Shown one piece after another: positions 47,034 through 64,000 of a DNA stretch of 64,000 nucleotides. The DNA is from Convolutriloba macropyga (lineage: Eukaryota). A program made the translations under genes and the position numbers. Each line of letters starts with the position of its first letter. Position 1 is the stretch's first letter. The notes below the pieces were generated by a model. That model saw nothing but the letters and a program-made list of their open reading frames with translations, was not told the DNA's origin and did not search any database. The stretch is from positions 43,772,001 to 43,836,000 of the forward strand of contig NC_134482.1 in the NCBI RefSeq assembly GCF_964194025.1. The letters are read 5' to 3'.

Positions 47034-48018
47034 TGTTACTGCCCTTCACAGTTTACCAAATACTCTCATTTTGAGAGCATCACTAAATGTACAAATTTTG
47101 CATTTTTTTGACATTGAGAAATTTTAATTAAAGCCGCCAGTCCACGTGATTGTTTTTGGCACCATATCAAGTTCGTTAAATTGTCGTCTAATTTTGTATT
47201 GAATGCATCACAATGCTCTTTGTTCACGATACTTAAACGACGGGGTTATTCTCGAGACCACATGCATAAACTGAGAATTCAACCTCTGGTTCTAATCTTG
47301 TATATAGTTAAGTATTAAAGAAAGTTAAATGCTAATATGAATTAATAAGTTATGTTAAACAGCATCAAATATGAACCGAGCATTAAGGGATAAAATAGTT
47401 AAAGTTATTAAGATTGAGATAGTACTAGTTAGCACAGGTTGAAATATTCTAAGTTAACTTGTAACCTAGATAGAATTTAAGAGATGTTAATTTATAACTT
47501 AAAGAAGTTAAGCTGAACTTACCTGATTTCCAAAATTGTGCTAAAATAATACTTTCTGACTTAGAAAGTTTTTAGTTAAGAACTTGTCACAAAATAATCT
47601 AAGTTAAAATCTATCTCAAGTAAGCTGAGATTTAAGCAAGGGAGCAAAACGGGAGTATGATTTAAATCAGAAGTTATCGGGGACCAAATTGTGCTGGTCG
47701 TTGAGCGTGCAAGCTCGTTTTATGCTTGCAACCACGTGGTTCTCTAGTATCCTATTGGATAGAGATAGCAGTGTCGACAGAGTTACCAAGGTTAAGTTGG
47801 TGTTCTCAAAGTGGCGTGACAATATCACGTCATGGTATTCTCAGTTTGAGTTAGTGATCTTAAAACAGTAGCTTATTCAAAACTACTTAGTAATTTGTTC
47901 ACACGTTAAAGTGGACTTTGTCCAATTTAGGTTTGTGCTTCACGCACTCAAAGGTATATTCTCAAAATAGCACTAAGATTATCGAATAGTGTTACTGAGT
48001 GTAGCACACTTCAGTACA
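47034..48018 (-). repeat. 3' LTR (~985 bp)
   Basis: Minus strand begins TGTACTGAAG directly after the PPT and ends GCAGTAACA (TG...CA with short terminal inverted repeat). The second LTR is not in the window. Confidence 0.75.
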
Positions 48019-50827: not shown

Positions 50828-52951
50828 TTATGGGACCTGCATTGTCCGTTCTCTATTTTCATTAGTGCTATTAGTTGCTGAGTTAGTTGCTTGATAGATA
50901 GAAGTCAGAATTGGGACCGACATTAAATCAAATGAGGCAACAAAGAGTGCTTTAACAAAGTGAATAGATGCATCTGTAATTTTGTTATGTTGCATTGCTC
51001 GAATTAAGCATAAGGCTATGTCGATGAGTAGCTTAATGAATAAGAAAGCAGCAAAGAATATTCCGCATCGCTCAATTATATATTGTATTTTGCGAAAGGT
51101 TTCAACAAAATGATTATTAAAGAAGTCCGGTGAAATAAATGAATCGAGATAAATTGTTCTAGAATTATAATAATTTGTTCCTGAAATATCTGAAAATGAT
51201 TCTCTGTTACCTAAAAATGATTTAGTAAAAAGCTTAAGAACTCCTTTCGTATTGGAGTTGAAATTTTTTGAATTCCAGAAAGCCATCATTTCTTTATATG
51301 TGTAGATAGAAGCCTGAATGCTTGCAGTAATTATATTCGCAATTTGCTGAATGACTATGTGTGGTTTAAAGATTGCAGGTCCTCTTACTTTTGTTATTTG
51401 TGGGGTTAGTTCAATCCATGAATTGTCATCGTCAACATCTAGCTGAAATAACTTTGAACGTTTATCAGAGCACAATTGTTCTTCGGCTTCAGTGAAGGTC
51501 TGTTTAGAAATCGGATCAACGAAATGTATTTCATCTTCATAGAGAATTGGTATTCGGTTATAGCACTTACTAAGAATCTGTAAGGTGAACGAAATCCAGG
51601 ACAATTATATAACCGGGCAAAATTGCCGTTTGTTTAGATAAACATAGTTCTGTTTCTTGCTAAGTTATATCCAGCTAAACGCGGATTTTCATGAGAAATC
51701 ATTAATGTGTTGAGAATAGTTGAGCGTTCTAGTTCACAGTCATTTCTTAATAGCTCTAGAGTAGAATTTTGAGGTTGCCGAAGATTTTTAAAGTGCAAAT
51801 AGTCAATTTTTGCTCCATGATGGGCTTGGAAATCAGTATTTTCATCAATTTGAAAATGCTTTGTATCAACTGTTTTTAAGCGTGATAGCACTGGTATCAG
51901 ATTTTAATTTGAGAATGGGCTCTCCAGTGTTCATATCGAAACCGTCACGAAGACAAATATACAGAGAATCATATGGCCTAGTGTATAATATTTGTGGATG
52001 ACTACATAAAGACTGTGGTTTTTCTAAAAACTTGGAACATAAAGCTTTGTAAATCAAAATCTGACTTAGCTGAGCTAAGTTTAGGAGCCTTTTACTATAT
52101 AGTATTTTTCATTAGCTTTAATCATTTGAGCGTCAAAAGTGCGAATCACAGTGAAAAGACAATTATTGGGTTCATCCCAAGTGTATGCAAATGGATCAGT
52201 AGATGTAGAATCGCAGCTTCCGGTTGATAAAGGACAAGGTAGAGGTATATTTTGTCAGTCATTAACTGTGCCATCTCTAAGGTTTACATTTAGGCTAACA
52301 TTTTGTATATATGATTTATAAGTGTAGTGTGTAATCCAACCTCGGGAGTTACATTCATTGTTTCCAGTTCCAACATCGCCTGAGTTAAAGTTTGAGAACA
52401 AAGATTTGTCAAAATCGATTTCTACTGAACAGGAAGAAGGGGAAAGCTTTATCTTTTTTCTTTCCTTTGCAAGATTGCATTTCTGAGCGTCAAGCTGATC
52501 AGAAGTAGTAATAGTATTATGTCTGGCATCTACGCCGCTTGAGTCAAAAAATGGCAAAACCAACGCAATTGCTATTCGGTTGCTTTACACATAGTTGCTT
52601 CTAACTTTACTTTATAGTTTCTTTGGTAAAGAGTGACTCGTGCTTGACTAGTGCCAATTTTAGCAGGGCGAATTTTGCAGGGTGCTACTTTGTAGAGAGA
52701 ATACATCTTGAGATATTTTTGAGCAGCCAAATTGGAAAACATGAAGGTTAGGAGCAGTTTTTTTCATAAATACGCACCTTCTCAATTGGTATAGCATCAG
52801 TGAGAGTCGTTAAGAGTAATAATGCAAGAAGCGTAACAAAAATCAAATATTTTGCATAGCAAGCATTGATAACAGAGAGAAAATCAAGAGGTATTATAGC
52901 AATCAGTTTAAGAAGCTGAGCAGAACGAACTTGGTTTCTCATGTAGGTCAT
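50828..52951 (-). pseudogene. Envelope glycoprotein, chuvirus-G / herpes gB-like class III fusogen, frameshifted
   Basis: Signal-like YLIFVTLLALLLLTTLTDA; Cys-patterned ectodomain PCKIRPAK..ARVTLYQRNY..EATMCK, GNNECNSRGWI, PLPC, DSTSTDPFAYTWDEPN, CELERSTILNTLMISHENPRLAGY, KCYNRIPILYEDEIHFVDPI; C-terminal TM IERCGIFFAAFLFIKLLIDIALCLI. Confidence 0.75.
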
Positions 52952-55623
52952 AAAATAACCTATTTTTGAAGGGAGAGGTTTCTTATCAGTAGGTTTTTCT
53001 ATAAAGAACTCGTCTATATTCAGTGACAGCGGTGAATGGTCGATGATTTTTTAACTTATTTCCGAAATTGATAGCTTTTCAGGAGGCTCTATTAAGTTAA
53101 GGTATGGACTTTCTTCAGGTAAACAATTATTTCTATTTATGACACATTCGATGAAGTGTGGTTGAGAATCGTTATATTCAAAGAGTATAACCAATCTTGC
53201 AATACGTTGAGCAATTTCAGATTCAATATCAGTTGCAACAGGCGAGAACATAGCTAAACAAAGTAACATGAATAGAATCAATTTGTAACTTACGTTGATT
53301 ACTTCGTCTATTGGTGGTGACTTTTTGATTTCTCCGTCTTCCATTTAATAAACGAAGACAGTTTAAAGTGCGTATAACAAATTCAAGTTAAAATTATCAG
53401 TGAAAGTGATCTGATATTTTAGCTCGTAAACGTGACTGGAATCATAGGCTACCTAAAATATGACAAAATTTGCGTTATTGTCTGATGTTGCAAAAAATGC
53501 AACTATTTTCTGTTGATTAGAAACAAAACACTTGTCAAGTGTTACAGTTTTACTTCCGAATTGCAATGCTTTCTGTAGGAGGAATATTCTAATATAAGAT
53601 AGAGGGTCGTAAACAAGAGCAGTGAGAACTTGTGTTTCAAGGGAAAGTGGTAACATAGATTAAAACTCTACAGTAAAGGGAGCTCCAATGATATCGAGGT
53701 TTATTTGCTCTCTATTGTTCAACTGGAAATGAAAACGTTCAATATGTTCGGGTTTATCAGGGGTCCAACAAACAATTATTTGTAAGTTTGGAAACTGGTC
53801 TTTAAAAAGAAAATTACAATCTTTTCTTTATATGAAATATACGATCGATCAATTCTGACTGACTTGTTATTATATTTCAGGATTTTATGCGGGATGTTGT
53901 AAGTACTGAAAGAAGTTGAGAAAGTTGTTCTTGAAGCCATAATCCAATAATCGTTTAGCGGAATATTCATTGATCGGTTGATGGTTCTAAAGCCAAACAA
54001 GGGACATTCGAAATATCTAAGTCAACTAAACTTGTAGAATGAATTTGGATGAAAAAACTGTTTAGTTGTTGAGGGTTATACTTTCTCCAGAAGACATCAA
54101 AAGGGTCTTTGTTAGAATTAATAGCAAAGAACACTACAGTTCTTACTTCGTTAGAAATTTGAAAACTGGTTAAGGTGTTTAGTGTGAGCACTGTTGTTTG
54201 GAATTCAACAAATTAGAAACTTTCTGAAATGTCATTTTTTTACTATGTTCAACCTGAAGAGTTATATACTCTTTCTGTAGTTGATATCTAGGAAATGAAG
54301 ATTTAGAATTATTACATAAAGACTGTGGTTTATTATAAAATTAGAACATAAAGCTTTGTAAATCAAAATCTGACTGAGCTGAGCTAAGTTTAGGATCCTT
54401 TTACTATATTATTTGTCATTAGTTTTAATCATTTGAGCGTCAAAAGTGCGAATCACAGTGAAAAGACAACTATTGGGTTCATCCCAAGTGTATGCAAATG
54501 GATCAGTAGATGTAGAATCGTAGCCTCCGGTTGATAAACGACAAGGTAGAGGTATATTTTTCCAGTCATTAACTGTGCCATCTCTAAGCTTTACATTTAG
54601 GCTAACATTTTGTATATATGATTCATAAGTGTAGTGTGTAATCCAACCTCGGGAGTTACATTCATTGTTTCCAGTTCTAACATCGCCTGAGTTAAACTTT
54701 GAGAACAAAGATTTGTCAAAACCGATTTCTACTGAACTGGAAGAAGGGGAAAGCTTTATCTTTTTTCTTTGCTTTGCGAGATTGCATTTCTGAGCATCAA
54801 GCGTAACTGAAGTAGTAATAGTATTATGTCTGGCATCTACGCCGCTTGAGTCAAAAAATCGCAAAACCAACGCAATTGCTATTCGGTTGCTTTACACATA
54901 GTTGCTTCTAACTTTACTTTATAGTTTCTTTGGTAAAGAGTGACTCGTGCTTGATTACTGCCAATTTTAGCAGGGCGAATTTTGCAGGGAGCTCCAATGA
55001 TATCGAGGTTTATTTCCTCTCTATTGTTCAACTGAAAATGAAAACGTTTAATATGTTCGGGTTTTTCAGGGGTCCAACAAACAATTATTTCTAAGTTTGC
55101 AAACTGGTATTTAACAAAGAAAATTACAATGTTTTCTTTGTATGAAATATACGATCGATCAATTCTGGATGACTTGTTATTATATTTCAGGATTTTATGC
55201 GGGATGTTGTAAGTACAGAAAGAAGTTGAGAAAGTTGTTCCTGAAGCCATAATCCAATAATCGTTTAGCGGAATATTCATTGATCGGTTGGTGGTTCTAA
55301 AACCAAACAAGGGACATTCGAAATATCTAAGTCAACTAAACTTGTAGAATGAATTTGGATGAATAAACTGTTAAGTTGTTGAGGGTTATATTTTCTCCAA
55401 AAGACATCAATAGGTTCTTTGTTAGAATTAATAGCAAAGAACACTACAGTTCTTACTTCGTTAGAAATTTGAAAACTGGTTAAGGTGTTTAGTGTGAGCA
55501 CTGTTGTTTGGAATTCAACAAATTAGAAACTTTCTGAAATGTCATTTTTTTACTATGTTCAACCTGAAGAGTTATATACTCTTTCTGTAGTTGATATCTG
55601 GGAAGTGAAGATTTAGAATTATT
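52004..55623. repeat. Internal tandem duplication in the env region; second copy has a ~1-kb deletion
   Basis: 52004-52684 matches 54313-54989; 53677-54312 matches 54987-55623; segment 52685-53676 is absent from the second copy. Confidence 0.9.
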
Positions 55624-55890
55624 AGTGAACTAGGATACCTGGTATATGTGTTGTGGAGATTTGTTGAGACAAGTGTTAGTCGGTGGTCACAATTTGGAAT
55701 ATTTGAAAATTTTTCTAACTTTTCTAGGTTATTATTTGAAAGGGGCAAAATGCGAAGATAGAACTTGGGACAGAGAGAAGGAGAGTGAGAGCGAGAGAGA
55801 TAGCAAATTTGATGATTTTTCGGGTGAAGGTAGTTTGTGCATCAATAGTTTGTTTGATACTGAAAGAATTTGCAAAAACTTTGACATCTT

Positions 55891-58519: not shown

Positions 58520-61500
58520 TTATTTCTTTTTTAGTTTATGTAGCAAGTCAGAAGGAATAGGTTCACCAAAGAATGTAGGTGCTCTTCGATTTCGCTGAGG
58601 TCTCCTTAAGACATTGTTTGCGTCTGGTAAATTAGATATAATTGTTGAGGCTGTAGTTGTAGAATTATAATGTGATGATGTGGGGCTTTTATGCGTTGCT
58701 TTGGGGAATAATTTACGTGCTGCTTCAAATTTACTAGCATTATCAGATGGGTTAGAATAACTTTCTTGCTGTGGGCTATTAGGTGAATACATATTTTGTA
58801 TAGGGTAGGAGGTTGAAATGCGTGGTGGTAGAAAATCAGAAGAGCTTGTGCCTGGAATATGTGTAGTGTTATCTACTCGTGTTTGTAGCGATTCTAAGCC
58901 TGAATTTTTGTTGGGGTAACCTCAACATTAAATGTTGGCTGTAGTGTAGTACTAGGATTAACAGTATGTTGTGTTTCTACTAAGGGCCACTGTGAAAAAA
59001 CAATACGTTTTGCACCGCTATGAGTGTTATATTTGGCTATAATATGCTTATTATAATGAGTATAACAATCATCAGTGTCGTCTGAAAATACATAGTTCTC
59101 AACTATCTCTTGTATTTTCTCTTCTTTTGGCTAATAAGGTACTATATGATTTCTACGCACGGTTTTTTTTTTCATTTGTTTTATCATGCTGTATTTCATT
59201 TGTAGTATTAGTTTGTTGCACTGTGTAAGGTCCTGAGCGTTGCTCTTGTAGCTTTTTGGATTTTAATAGTCCTTTAGAGTGACTCTTTAATAGTACTTTT
59301 CTTCCTTCATGTTTAGGCTTTCCGAGTTCAAATCTGTTTCTAAACTTGTGTTCTTTATTCGTAGTTTGTCTACATTTAGTGTAGGTTTTCAAATATATAG
59401 TTTGAAATGTACTATCTCGTTTTAACATTTCGTTCGATAATCTGTTTTGTAATAATTTCTCTATATTTTTGTTATTACTTCTATTGTTGTTTTCTTTATT
59501 TTTGTTGTTGTTTAGTTTCTTCACTATGCGAGTGTGGTGGTAGATTACTAAAATACTCTGATGTGCTTTTGTTTTGATTATCTCGTAGTAGTCCAAACTT
59601 TAGTGATAGGGGTATTTGTGGTTTTGTTCCGAATAGTATTTCATAAGGTGTATATCCTGTACTGTAGTTTACTGCAGTATTGTGTGAGAATGCAAATTTA
59701 TTAGTGTACTCGGACCAATTAGATCCACTTTGGCTAATAAAGTGTCTTAGGTAATTAGTCAAATGTTTATTTTGTACTTCTACTTTGCCGTTAGTCCACG
59801 GTGAGTATGCAATTCGGGGGCATAGTGTAATTCCCATTTCTTTTGTGTAGTGAACGAAATCATTACTAATAAAAGCATTGCCGTTATCATGTACTATTTG
59901 TTGCGGTATATCAAATGTAGTTATAAATTTCGCTAGTTGATTGACTATTTTGAGAGCGTCGGCATTCAGGATAGGGTATACTTGTATAAATCCAGAGAAA
60001 GCTTCTACGAGACAAAATCTATTTCATTTACTAAGTGGTCGTAGTGGACCTTCATGATCAATATGAAGTGTATGTAGGGGTATAGCTTCAAATTGTCTCC
60101 ATGGTTCTAAGGGTGCTTCGTTTAAGTGTTTGCGTGCTGTCTTATTATTTTGGCAGTTTAAGCATTCTAACATTATTATTTCAATCCATTTAAACATACC
60201 GGTTTAATCGCTTAACTCTATTATAAGTTGTGGTTTCTGCTCTGTGACCACTAAGTTCATGCGTATGCGCAACCTCGAATATTTAAATAAATAGTGAAAG
60301 TGGTGCACATATTCTAACGTCAAAAAAGCCGTCTTCACAAGGTTCAAAATAACAGAGTAAATCATATTGACTCTCTAGAAACAACAAGTTGAAATTATTT
60401 CTATTATTTTGGCATGCTTAAGATTGTTTAATTGTGTACTCTTTTTCTGGAGCTTTGCCTACTTTTAACCAATCTCTAACTTTATTTATCACGGAGTTGT
60501 TTACTTGCTCTTCATGAATATTATCAGTGTCAAGATTAGCGTTTTTACAGATTAGCATCTGTAACCTTAGCTATTAAATCTAATGTTTCTGTGTGGACAT
60601 CCTTTTCTGAGATGTTTCGGAAAGCTTCGGGTTCAATATGTTTCTTAAATTTTGTACGTCTAATATAGTCAGCTTTAGCATATTCTAATTGTTCAATAAG
60701 TGAGTTTTCAATATTATCTTCTACTAAGTCTAACCAATCTTGGTCATCATAACCTTCTCGATCATCACTTATTTCGGCTATTTCTTCAGTCACATATTTC
60801 GGCTATTTCTTCAGGAGAGGAGTAGTGATTGTCGAATTTACTAGTCAGTTCTGAGGTTAACTTCTTTATTTCATTTATTTGTGTGCCGTAGCGAACACAA
60901 TCAGAAAACTGTGTATAGCGTTACAGTGCTCATATATGTAGTCTGGTGCATCATCTACAATAAAGTCACCTTCATCGTTTATATTGATTAGTTTCTTACT
61001 TTCGCCTTTGACTTGAGCAATAATTGAATAACAGTCGCTAGCTGTTGCGTCCTTATCGTTTTTGTGCAATACAGTGTAGTTAACTTCTTTTCCGTTAATA
61101 TGAAACTTTATATCTTTAGGTATTACTTGATGTTCTAGCTGATAAAATTTAGCATCTTCAAAGGAAATGTCTTGGCTAAGAATGTCAGCGAACGTTAAGT
61201 TTTTGCCTTCAGTGTAAATAATTTGCAAGTTTTGAAACTTAGTTATTACTAATTGATAATTAAAGAAACGATGTGACAATTGTACGCGTCGTGACCAAAG
61301 AAAGAGAATTGGTCTGTGATCACAATAGAGATAGATTGGAGATGGGGATCCAATAACGTAAATTTCATATGTTTGTAATGCAGATATTATTCCGCATAGT
61401 TCTCTATGTTGAGGGGACATTTTTGTTCAGCTTTATCAAATACTCTTGAGTTTGCTGAAATCATGCGTTTTCTATCAGGGAAATCTTGTATAAGAACACA

Positions 61501-64000
61501 GCCTGTTCCTAATTTAGATGAATCGGCATGTATATGAAAAAGATAGTCATTGGAAAGAAATGCGTTGGAAATGTCATGACAGAATCTTTGTTTAAGATCC
61601 GTGAATATATTTTCGTGTTCTTGTAACAACTTGAATAGTGTTGAATCTTTAGTTAAGTCATATAGAGGTTTTGCATCTATGTGAATGTTTAAAATATAGG
61701 TGTGATAGAAACCCATCATTCCTAAAACTCTTAAAACTTCTGTTTTCGACTCTGGCGTTTTTAGGTTTCTAATATCATCTGTGCGCGAAGCAATAGGGGA
61801 TATTCCGTCTTTAGATAAAAAGTGTCCTAGAAATCTCACTTTTCGTAAGAAAAACATTGCTTTATCAGGGGCTGATTTAAAGTTTGCCTTTCGAAGCAAA
61901 GAGTGATACTCTTTTACTATTGTGAACTTTTCTCGTTTATCTTTAGCTTGTAATAAGTTGTCGTCTATGTATGGTATGGCTCGTTTTTGTTTTATAAGAG
62001 GTCCGAATGCATAACGCATAAGTTTGCTGAAGAAACTGGGTAATGGCTTAAGACAATAAACTCCTACTTGACAAGTGTACTGTCTGCCTCCTACAATAAA
62101 ACTTGTGACCTTTTGTGTATCTTCGGTTAGTGATACTCTATTATAAGCTGATGATAAGCCACTACTTTTGAAAAATAGTTCGAGTGATTCTTGTAATTAG
62201 AACGTTTAGTGGTTCAAGTGGCCAACTAGAATTACTTGTATCATTTGTGGAGTTTGGGTATCTAGCATCTATTACTAGTTTCACATATTCCTTCTGAAAT
62301 AGTATGATAAAATAATTGACAAACTAACTATTCACATCGTTGTTCTGATTGAGCTCTCTGATAATTCCAGCTTGGATTAATTCATCCATTAATTTTTCTA
62401 GTTTATCTCTGAGATGAATGGGTGTTTTGCTAGGTCGCTGCTTTCTAAAGGTAGCGTCTTTCTTTAGGGGTAAATGAACCTTATGTTTGCTTCTACCAAT
62501 ATCATACTTATCATGTGAATAGACATCATTATCCTAAAGTATTATTTCTATTAACTCAAATAATTCATCGTCAGTCAAATTATTTTGTGTGAAATCAAAA
62601 TTATCCAAACATTTATCTAGATATTCTGGGTCCTGAAAAGTATTCTATTTTGCTCAAGTACAAAGTCGCTGACGGCTTTATTCATGATTCGGTTGCTTTG
62701 TAGTTTATCCCTAAATATAGGAAACTGGTCGTTGACTTTAGGTCTACATAATAATTTAGCTTCGGTAGAGAAGTCTGTTGCTACTTCTATCTCATCTTCT
62801 TTGCTTTTTTCTATTAACTCACTTTCAATAATTTCGACTGTCTCTTCTTGTTCTAGCGTATTGGTTTCTACTCTTTGTAGTTTGTCAATATCATCTTTGC
62901 TTGTATACATATAGATAGCTATTCCTGAATTTTTAAATGTTTGTTCAATTAGAGAAGGTATCCCTCTCCAATCCATTCCGTCTAAACCACACGTTATTTT
63001 TGGCATTCCTATACAGCGAAAAATTTAGTCCTAGTGCGTGATCTCTCATAACAAGAAGCGTTGCTTTGCTTGTATCTGTTGTTGGTTTCTCATAGGGATT
63101 ATCCTTAGTGACCACATTATATACTAATCTTTTATCTGCTCTGAAGGTTATTATGTCACCTGTAACAAAGTTTCTACTTTTACAGTAGTCCTTTAATACG
63201 GGTATTCTTTTGCAAATTGTGTTGGCAAAGCCTTTTCTCATTTCTGCATCTGATGACATTGTGTGCGCTATAGGCATATTAGAGTCAAAAATTGATTGGG
63301 AATGAAAATCTACATATCTATTGCATGAATTACTTTGAATTTACTGTTGTTCTTGTAAATTGCTAACTACTGTGTTTAGTATGAAACAACTGTTATAGTC
63401 CTCACTTTCGTTTAGTTTTGTACTTGGGAATTCAGTACAGTTTTTGTGAAGTCAGTACCATGAATATGGGTAGAAATTCTTCAGATTGAGGACAAAGTGT
63501 GTTCACAAAGACTAGGTCAGTATTTGCAACATTAATATGAGGCATGAAATATGTTCCTGGTGGAAATAGGTTATGACTGGATTGCTTTTGCTTCTGCAAT
63601 TGTGTTCTTTTCTGTTGCAGAAAGATCGGATGAGCTATGTTTAAGATCGGTTAGGCAGTCATTTTTGTTATGTATGGATAATCTTCGCATAGTTGAGTGA
63701 TCCGTAGCAAATTAAGTTTCTTTCAGTTTTTAATTCTACTGCGGGGATATCGAAGTGCAGTGCTTTTAGAATCAAATGACAAAAATCATTAACTATTATA
63801 TTCTGTCTCTGTTCTTTAGTAACGAATGCTTTATGAGGGACTGTATATTTACCGTCATTTTCAAAACTAGACTGGATAGTTGTATAGCCAAGCATTCTGA
63901 TTGATGAACCAGTGTATGTTTTTGAATCACAATTTGTACTATGTAGACGCAAATTTTGTCCAAGGTTTACTAGAGCAAGGTATGTAGGATGATTGATGAT
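58520..64000 (-). pseudogene. pol: Gypsy pol (protease, macrodomain, RT, RNase H, integrase) with stops and frameshifts
   Basis: Protease C-term NIIVNDF; RT YIDD (61960-61971), FFLRKVRFLGH; RNase H IHADSSKLGTGCVL, RELCGII, LYCDHRPI, TFADILS; integrase HHCC remnants, HIDHEGP, IVHDNGNAF, YSPWTNGKVEVQNK, GYTPYEILFG, SGPYTV; C-terminal LRRPQRNRRAP. Confidence 0.92.
62900..63320 (-). pseudogene. TARG1/OARD1 (DarG-related) macrodomain embedded in Pol between protease and RT
   Basis: SIFDSNMPIAHTMSSDAEMRKGFA...RLVYNVVTKDNPYEKPT...MRDHAL / MPKITCGLDGMDWRGIPSLIEQTFKNSGIAIYMY parallels TARG1 LAHCISEDCRMGAGIA...YIYYLITKKRASHKPT...MPRIGCGLDRLQW...FEATDIKITVY; one frameshift near 63010. Confidence 0.85.

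Follow-up and report, generated by a model that had tools for sequence, protein, structure and literature searches.

What is a domain resembling a human ADP-ribose hydrolase doing inside the polyprotein of a retrotransposon? The question is raised by a stretch of 64,000 nt of the Convolutriloba macropyga genome (GCF_964194025.1, NC_134482.1:43,772,001-43,836,000, forward strand), which as a whole is called here the window. The original prediction placed in it a TARG1/DarG-like macrodomain with one frameshift, lying between the protease and the reverse transcriptase (RT) of a retroelement Pol and keeping the catalytic lysine and aspartate, and proposed that the domain erases host ADP-ribosylation. 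In the following we ask which parts of this picture hold for the element family, where the domain came from and what it may do.

The window copy and its intact relatives

The copy lies on the minus strand, and its 5' LTR and gag fall past the window end. The parts recognized are listed below, in window coordinates except for the last two entries.

62902..63325 (-): TARG1/OARD1-type macrodomain inside Pol (phmmer, tblastn, Foldseek of the intact-copy model)
63020..63024 (-): frame break within the macrodomain (reading-frame list and tblastn)
63104..63106 (-): codon equivalent to Lys84, the catalytic nucleophile of TARG1; lysine of VTK (4J5R alignment)
62980..62982 (-): codon equivalent to Asp125, CGLD loop (4J5R alignment; tblastn)
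63254..63265 (-): equivalents of His32...Ser35, distal-ribose loop (alignment; residue roles according to excerpts of PMC6397177)
63683..64000 (-): aspartic protease region, its N-terminal part past the window end (tblastn, 91% to intact Pol aa 61-166)
63330..63686 (-): post-protease spacer domain, unnamed (tblastn to intact Pol)
61237..62400 (-): RT and RNase H, broken, limits approximate (Pfam RVT_1, RT_RNaseH; tblastn)
58547..60300 (-): integrase (zinc domain, core, SH3-like) and Pol C-terminal tail, broken, limits approximate (Pfam rve; tblastn)
51062..54992 (-): third ORF, chuvirus-type fusion glycoprotein (env), broken (tblastn, 62-88% to intact ORF3)
54290-54992 (-): second partial env piece (tblastn)
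47228..48018 (-): 3' LTR (blastn with the intact-copy LTR, 90.6% over 794 bp)
L043:1604-2327: 5' LTR, past the window end
L043:265-1388: gag pieces, past the window end

The window macrodomain is read in two overlapping frames with one frame break, and 17 long-frame sister copies pass the break site in a single frame. Pol of the window copy is broken throughout, tblastn finding it in 12 pieces with 13 stop symbols, and 48 of the 727 bases aligned between the two LTRs are different; the copy is thus inactive. Its DNA identity to intact copies is 88%. In the env region (52003-55624) there are direct duplications of about 640-680 bp, 95-96% identical, and next to the 5' LTR, at L043:3348-5989, there are fragments of another Gypsy element, with gag-like and RT frames on the plus strand.

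A search of the same genome gave 800 candidates, of which 150 were scored. All 150 matched, and 17 of them were in open Pol frames of 1873-1953 aa. In an intact natural Pol of 1898 aa the order is protease, spacer, Macro (Pfam, residues 332-432), RT, RNase H, and the zinc, core and C-terminal domains of integrase, i.e. the domain is in frame with pol in intact copies, as had been anticipated. Pfam also found Retrotrans_gag, Integrase_H2C2, Integrase_p58_C and SH3_Tf2-1 in the intact element, and Asp_protease_2 matched an intact copy with E 0.05. The unnamed spacer domain that follows the protease occurs in macro-less relatives too; a dUTPase was considered for it and dropped, PDB and Atlas searches giving no support.

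Two copies of the family to which the window copy belongs (family A) have LTRs of 814-815 bp that start with TGTACT; TGGTGG comes directly after the LTR. The LTR pairs are 99.6% identical, therefore the family moved recently. For a third family A copy no LTR pair was recovered within the stretches examined. The pol frame overlaps gag in the -1 frame, and in three families the heptamer TTTAAAC stands just before the gag stop, which we take to be a ribosomal frameshift site. The heptamers lie in L049:570-660, L081:2605-2694 and L091:2572-2661 and are followed in families A and C by a stem closed by GUCUCCG...CCGGAGA. The stem had z -2.3 in A and -3.3 in C, and was not seen in the folded fragment of family B.

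Between pol and the 3' LTR there is a third ORF of 782-786 aa, which matched PF24664 (Monjiviricetes_fusion) in all three families tested; for the intact ORF3 used to find the window env the E value was 1e-32. Intact chuvirus-type ORFs of this kind were located at L135:1384-3741, L134:616-2967 and L136:1589-3934. The order of protease, RT, RNase H and integrase, the LTRs with a TG start and a primer-binding site, and the fusion-glycoprotein ORF3 identify the element, at the level of sequence, as an envelope-bearing Ty3/gypsy LTR retroelement (Metaviridae), the named protein matches of its RT being at most 31% identical and the RT tree having been built without named Gypsy reference elements. 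Capture of a chuvirus glycoprotein has been described for the Anakin elements of the BEL/Pao group (PMC7642597, abstract). Both are LTR elements whose LTRs enclose a chuvirus-type fusion gene, but the element described here has Ty3/gypsy-type Pfam domains, and the Anakin abstract mentions no macrodomain.

Identity, catalytic residues and selection

When the window domain was read with X at the break, phmmer matched it to human TARG1/C6orf130 (4J5R, residues 23-146) with E 2.6e-16, the runner-up outside TARG1 reaching E 0.12 only; with the Pfam order seen in intact natural copies, this bears out a macrodomain with one frameshift between protease and RT. The Pfam Macro match was weak (E 0.14 in the window copy, 1.7e-4 in an intact copy), and the two window fragments taken separately gave no Macro match in Pfam. 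By tblastn the domain of the intact copy found two pieces in the window, 78-86% identical.

The intact-copy domain modelled from a 71-sequence alignment had a pLDDT of 97; a single-sequence fold (pLDDT 52) was left unused. Foldseek ranks 1-8 of this model were all TARG1 (E 4.7e-14, TM 0.85, identity 31%), DarG came next (TM 0.81-0.83, identity 18-19%), and coronavirus and alphavirus macrodomains ranked far lower (identity 10-16%). In the profile search TARG1 had E 1e-63 against 2e-17 for DarG, and the top matches in the viral structure library (BFVD) included TARG1-like domains of invertebrate RNA viruses. The fold, as judged from sequence and model, is Macro and closest to TARG1, which came first in phmmer, in the profile search and in Foldseek, as a profile or structure search had been expected to show. 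Compared with human TARG1/OARD1/C6orf130 (4J5R, 4J5S; ALC1-like class) the fold is the same (TM 0.85-0.87, rmsd 1.4-1.8 A, 31% identity), but the domain of the element is embedded in a retroelement polyprotein.

Alignment to 4J5R equates the lysine of VTK with Lys84 and the aspartate of CGLD with Asp125, the catalytic dyad of TARG1 according to excerpts of PMC9411070 and PMC6397177, thus the retention of the catalytic Lys/Asp pair was correctly foreseen. Among the 34 family A rows, the window copy included, Lys84 is present in 33 and Asp125 in 33. Family A also keeps H32, S35, D37, G43, T83, K90, P91, P118, G123, L124 and W129 of TARG1. It departs from TARG1 by D20S, C33T, I44F and G121A, which are found throughout families A-C, family B having T83M, K90P and L124G in addition.

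The published strict pattern TKx(30,35)Px[IL]GxGxD (PMC6397177) is absent from families A, B and C, where the first Gly is Ala (the window copy has T at the G121 position), so on sequence we file the domain as TARG1-like, without strict membership. The strict pattern is present in 47 of 64 library relatives, and 10 of the 64 have Ala at the first Gly. The adenine-binding positions Asp20 and Ile44 are Ser and Phe in families A-C; each of these replacements is seen in 5 of the 64 library relatives.

Of the label TARG1/DarG-like only the first half stood; DarG identity, and with it activity on thymidine-modified DNA, found no support here. The DarG macrodomain (5M31, 5M3E, 5M3I) shares the class and the catalytic lysine (TM 0.81-0.83), but identity is 18-19%, the neighbours of the element's domain are protease and RT and not a DarT toxin gene, and DarG lacks the dyad Asp (PMC9411070, excerpt), whereas the element family keeps Asp125. 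By sequence, the domain does not appear to belong to the DarG antitoxins. A search of the genome for the DarT family returned 0 matches, the control queries being likewise silent.

To estimate selection, variants were counted against the commonest codon of each column, in copies chosen for long frames and macro likeness. In 33 copies of family A the variants shared by at least two copies were 18 synonymous to 7 nonsynonymous in the macrodomain (omega ~0.10), in line with the purifying selection that had been predicted, and 34 to 9 in RT (omega 0.07). Singletons in the macrodomain were 22 to 42 (shared versus singletons, Fisher p 0.002; shared versus site counts, p 6e-8); they were used as control because site counts ignore transition bias. 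With 68 copies the shared variants were 30 to 24, and the macrodomain was less constrained than RT (omega 0.21 versus 0.08). The counts were 22 to 5 in family B (10 copies) and 18 to 2 in family G (9 copies), the macrodomain omega spanning 0.03-0.21 over the three families. The domain is kept under purifying selection, and selection on the flanking spacers is as strong as on the macrodomain.

In 20 element families or clusters Lys84 is the sole invariant among 134 core columns. Mean conservation of six pocket residues (H32, S35, T83, K84, G123, D125) was 0.91 versus 0.49 for the core, a value that 0 of 20000 random draws reached; this comparison is biased upward, since the families were collected largely via a TARG1-like profile, 7 of the 20 via RT search. 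Three of the 20 families have lost the GxD loop and kept Lys84, as in DarG, and two of these three (II_J, P0172) sit in long open Pol frames.

Origin and spread of the domain

Families A, B and C share the insertion site. Their macrodomains are 41-49% identical and their RTs 82-88%, the macrodomain being the fastest-diverging folded domain between families; the spacers are 45-60% identical. Such rapid divergence fits relaxed constraint as well.

The protein library contained 84 RT relatives, 24 of them at least 45% identical. Nine of these 24 carry the domain at the same site, seven span the site without the domain and eight do not reach it. In an RT-RNase H tree of 34 rows (P0012, P0165, P0182 and P0185-P0187 were excluded as A/B duplicates or fragments) the elements with the macrodomain group in a single clade (SH-aLRT 98) that is nested within elements lacking it, with one state change, a topology that indicates one gain of the domain in this lineage. 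The macrodomain was kept over lineages with RT regions ~60-65% identical. For at least one of the macro-bearing clusters this genome offers nothing close (best match 46%), and for this reason more than one host is probably represented in the clade.

A second Gypsy lineage of the same genome, with a Pol only ~23% identical, carries a TARG1-like domain at the Pol C-terminus, after integrase. It comprises several families, some with frames of 1800-1976 aa. Its loci include L160:2-5149, L161, L164-L167 and L176-L191 (e.g. G000:C6:71118699, C10:55223221); family G is abundant and under purifying selection, and some families lack the GxD loop.

Among the library relatives of the macrodomain the best 150 of 3085 were considered, and the 47 long ones among them were scanned. 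Eight of the 47 were LTR Pol pieces, with Macro after RNase H in four, after integrase parts in three and after protease in one, and four were RNA-virus proteins, two of these named Diabrotica undecimpunctata virus 1 and Crogonang virus 134. A homologue search restricted to long proteins with a macro region yielded 0 of 74 candidates. The original prediction spoke of a defence 'in this host': the domain is present in this host, but the scope was too narrow, because LTR Pol proteins of other sources carry TARG1-type domains too, at several positions.

A single clade of all LTR-borne macrodomains had an AU p of 0.045, which is borderline; on this test several captures across Gypsy are favoured, not proven. 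The 157-row macrodomain tree is a quick tree, in which 82 of 154 branches are open. An unrelated Gypsy Pol (P0229) has a degenerate macrodomain remnant between RNase H and integrase (residues 811-906), and in P0076, P0041, P0112, P0130 and P0028 a TARG1-like domain lies between the DNA ligase III catalytic part and BRCT.

The genome has a candidate host TARG1/OARD1 gene, with a single-exon domain and canonical motifs (L168:4953-5597, G000:C2:20366602), adjoining a C2H2 zinc-finger frame. It is 24-32% identical to the element domains and is not their sister in the tree, hence direct capture from the host's own TARG1-like gene is not favoured by the sequences.

Possible function and host context

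We think that the TARG1-type domain is likely to be an active ADP-ribose hydrolase, i.e. an eraser of the mark. The absence of the strict pattern, the substitutions relative to TARG1 and the loss of GxD in 3 of the 20 families count against activity, as far as sequence can tell. That the eraser is aimed at a restrictive PARP response of the host is the reading we prefer by analogy, at somewhat less than an even chance.

The course of events would be the following. In this lineage the domain was captured once, into Pol between protease and RT, and it has stayed there under purifying selection. In intact copies it lies in frame inside the 1898-aa Pol; Pol would be made as Gag-Pol by -1 ribosomal frameshifting, and the domain would therefore be packaged in the particle, after which it might be freed by the protease or left on RT. 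Lys84 and Asp125 would then act as they do in TARG1 and remove ADP-ribose from Glu/Asp of element proteins and possibly also from nucleic acid. Host PARPs serving as restriction factors would have placed the marks, in analogy to those that RNA-virus macrodomains face.

The main competitor is an active eraser used for clean-up: the repair enzymes PARP1/2/3 would mark cDNA or integration intermediates that are nicked, gapped or single-stranded as a by-product, and removal of the mark would let synthesis and ligation finish. We regard this as rather unlikely, although there is something to be said for it. Where Okazaki fragments are unligated, PARP1 places a mark on the ssDNA that TARG1 takes off again (PMC11102865, abstract), P0076 and the other proteins mentioned above combine a TARG1-like domain with DNA ligase III/BRCT, and the host has PARP1/2/3-type genes. 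RNA viruses, however, took up this type of domain although they have no DNA stage, which speaks for an antiviral mark, and most Gypsy elements do without the domain, as the 24 closest RT relatives illustrate. Patchy presence and fastest divergence are, by analogy, behaviour typical of counter-defence genes. We rank the counter-PARP role over clean-up on account of the uptake by RNA viruses and the patchy, fast-diverging domain, neither of which is decisive. The defence reading is tempered by the apparently catalysis-independent silencing of retroviruses by PARP1, whose role in integration is disputed (PMC8066025, excerpt). A K84-dependent rescue assay against DarT is described in the accessible text of PMC8501950.

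It is improbable that the domain serves as an ADP-ribose reader that anchors the integration complex on PARylated chromatin, in the manner of the chromodomain in chromoviruses. The second lineage has its domain at the extreme C-terminus after integrase, where chromodomains sit (PMC12440569, excerpt), Asp125 is lost in some families, and TARG1 localises to DNA damage (PMC4695847, excerpt); in the lineage of the window copy, however, the domain precedes RT and is remote from integrase, and conservation is highest at the catalytic lysine, whereas it is the adenine-binding Asp20 that has been replaced. We give a similarly low rating to an enzyme of free metabolites (O-acyl-ADP-ribose or ADP-ribose-1''-phosphate), or to a module that binds nucleic acid or acts as a spacer and is retained for the sake of its fold. 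TARG1 is annotated as O-acetyl-ADP-ribose deacetylase and the flanking spacers are under equally strong purifying selection, but conservation is concentrated on the six pocket residues, and the candidate host gene (L168) already supplies a metabolite enzyme. A neutral passenger from a host mRNA, now decaying, could be imagined from the close relatives that dispense with the domain and from the single-exon host-type gene, but it is highly improbable: the excess of synonymous variants (omega 0.03-0.21 in three families) already refutes it in large part, and the retention across lineages with RT only ~60-65% identical and the 24-32% identity to the host gene also count against it.

A broader form of the counter-PARP reading, possible but doubtful, is that ADP-ribosylation serves animal hosts as a dedicated and hitherto undescribed form of restriction of LTR retrotransposons, and that Gypsy answers by repeated captures of TARG1-type domains, after protease, between RNase H and integrase, and after integrase. 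If this were true, the domains would be to retrotransposons what Mac1 is to coronaviruses, and could be used as baits for the host writer and for the target that is modified, perhaps the cDNA. The defences known to act against transposons consist mostly of RNA silencing and chromatin; a conserved eraser-type domain with an intact dyad in Pol of several active Gypsy lineages would be the footprint of another pressure. With a domain of 150 aa it becomes testable whether PARPs restrict LTR retrotransposons through a catalytic mark, the macro-less and Asp125-less relatives being natural comparisons.

It is useful to compare the element with previously described carriers of macrodomains. TARG1-like homologues occur in many viral genomes (PMC4245714, excerpt), and macro-domain ORFs are present in epsilon-like endogenous retroviruses of fish (Basta et al. 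2009, as cited in the available part of PMC4977317). The latter are LTR retroelements with a captured macrodomain as well, but they are Retroviridae with macro as an additional ORF (same source), whereas here a Ty3/gypsy element has the domain in Pol. The macrodomains of RNA viruses (coronavirus Mac1, alphavirus nsP3, invertebrate-virus TARG1-like domains) are also polyprotein-borne, the eraser role being a prediction in our case; Mac1 and nsP3 are of a different class (10-16% identity), and the carrier described here reverse-transcribes and integrates. Full-text literature searches, seen as titles and abstract starts and with Repbase, supplements and subscription journals outside, returned no TARG1-type domain in Gypsy Pol, and term look-ups in the accessible parts of PMC4299795, PMC4120745, PMC8672886 and PMC12440569 gave no mention of a macrodomain. 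Fusions of Chromo and PHD to retrotransposons are reported in a chromatin-evolution preprint (excerpt). Macrodomain capture by viruses and retroelements was thus already known, and the TARG1 type in Gypsy Pol appears, within the literature searched, to be the new part. For annotation, many multi-copy 'OARD1-like' animal genes may be parts of retrotransposons.

On the host side, 27 candidates for the PARP family were retrieved from the genome, 19 of which matched; these 19 exon matches do not by themselves establish an expansion. The 10 PARP frames scanned include PARP1/2/3-types, a WWE-PARP cluster, a UBA-PARP and a helicase-PARP fusion. The host thus possesses ADP-ribosylation writers, which does not imply that the element is their target. 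The helicase-PARP fusion, a candidate nucleic-acid-sensing PARP, combines a superfamily-1 helicase C-terminal domain (AAA_12) with a PARP catalytic domain in one frame (L124:268-1854, G000:C13:2226204). Three PARP-domain matches, one of them with WWE, form a tandem cluster within 41 kb at G000:C7:32903583-32944232 (L126, L128).
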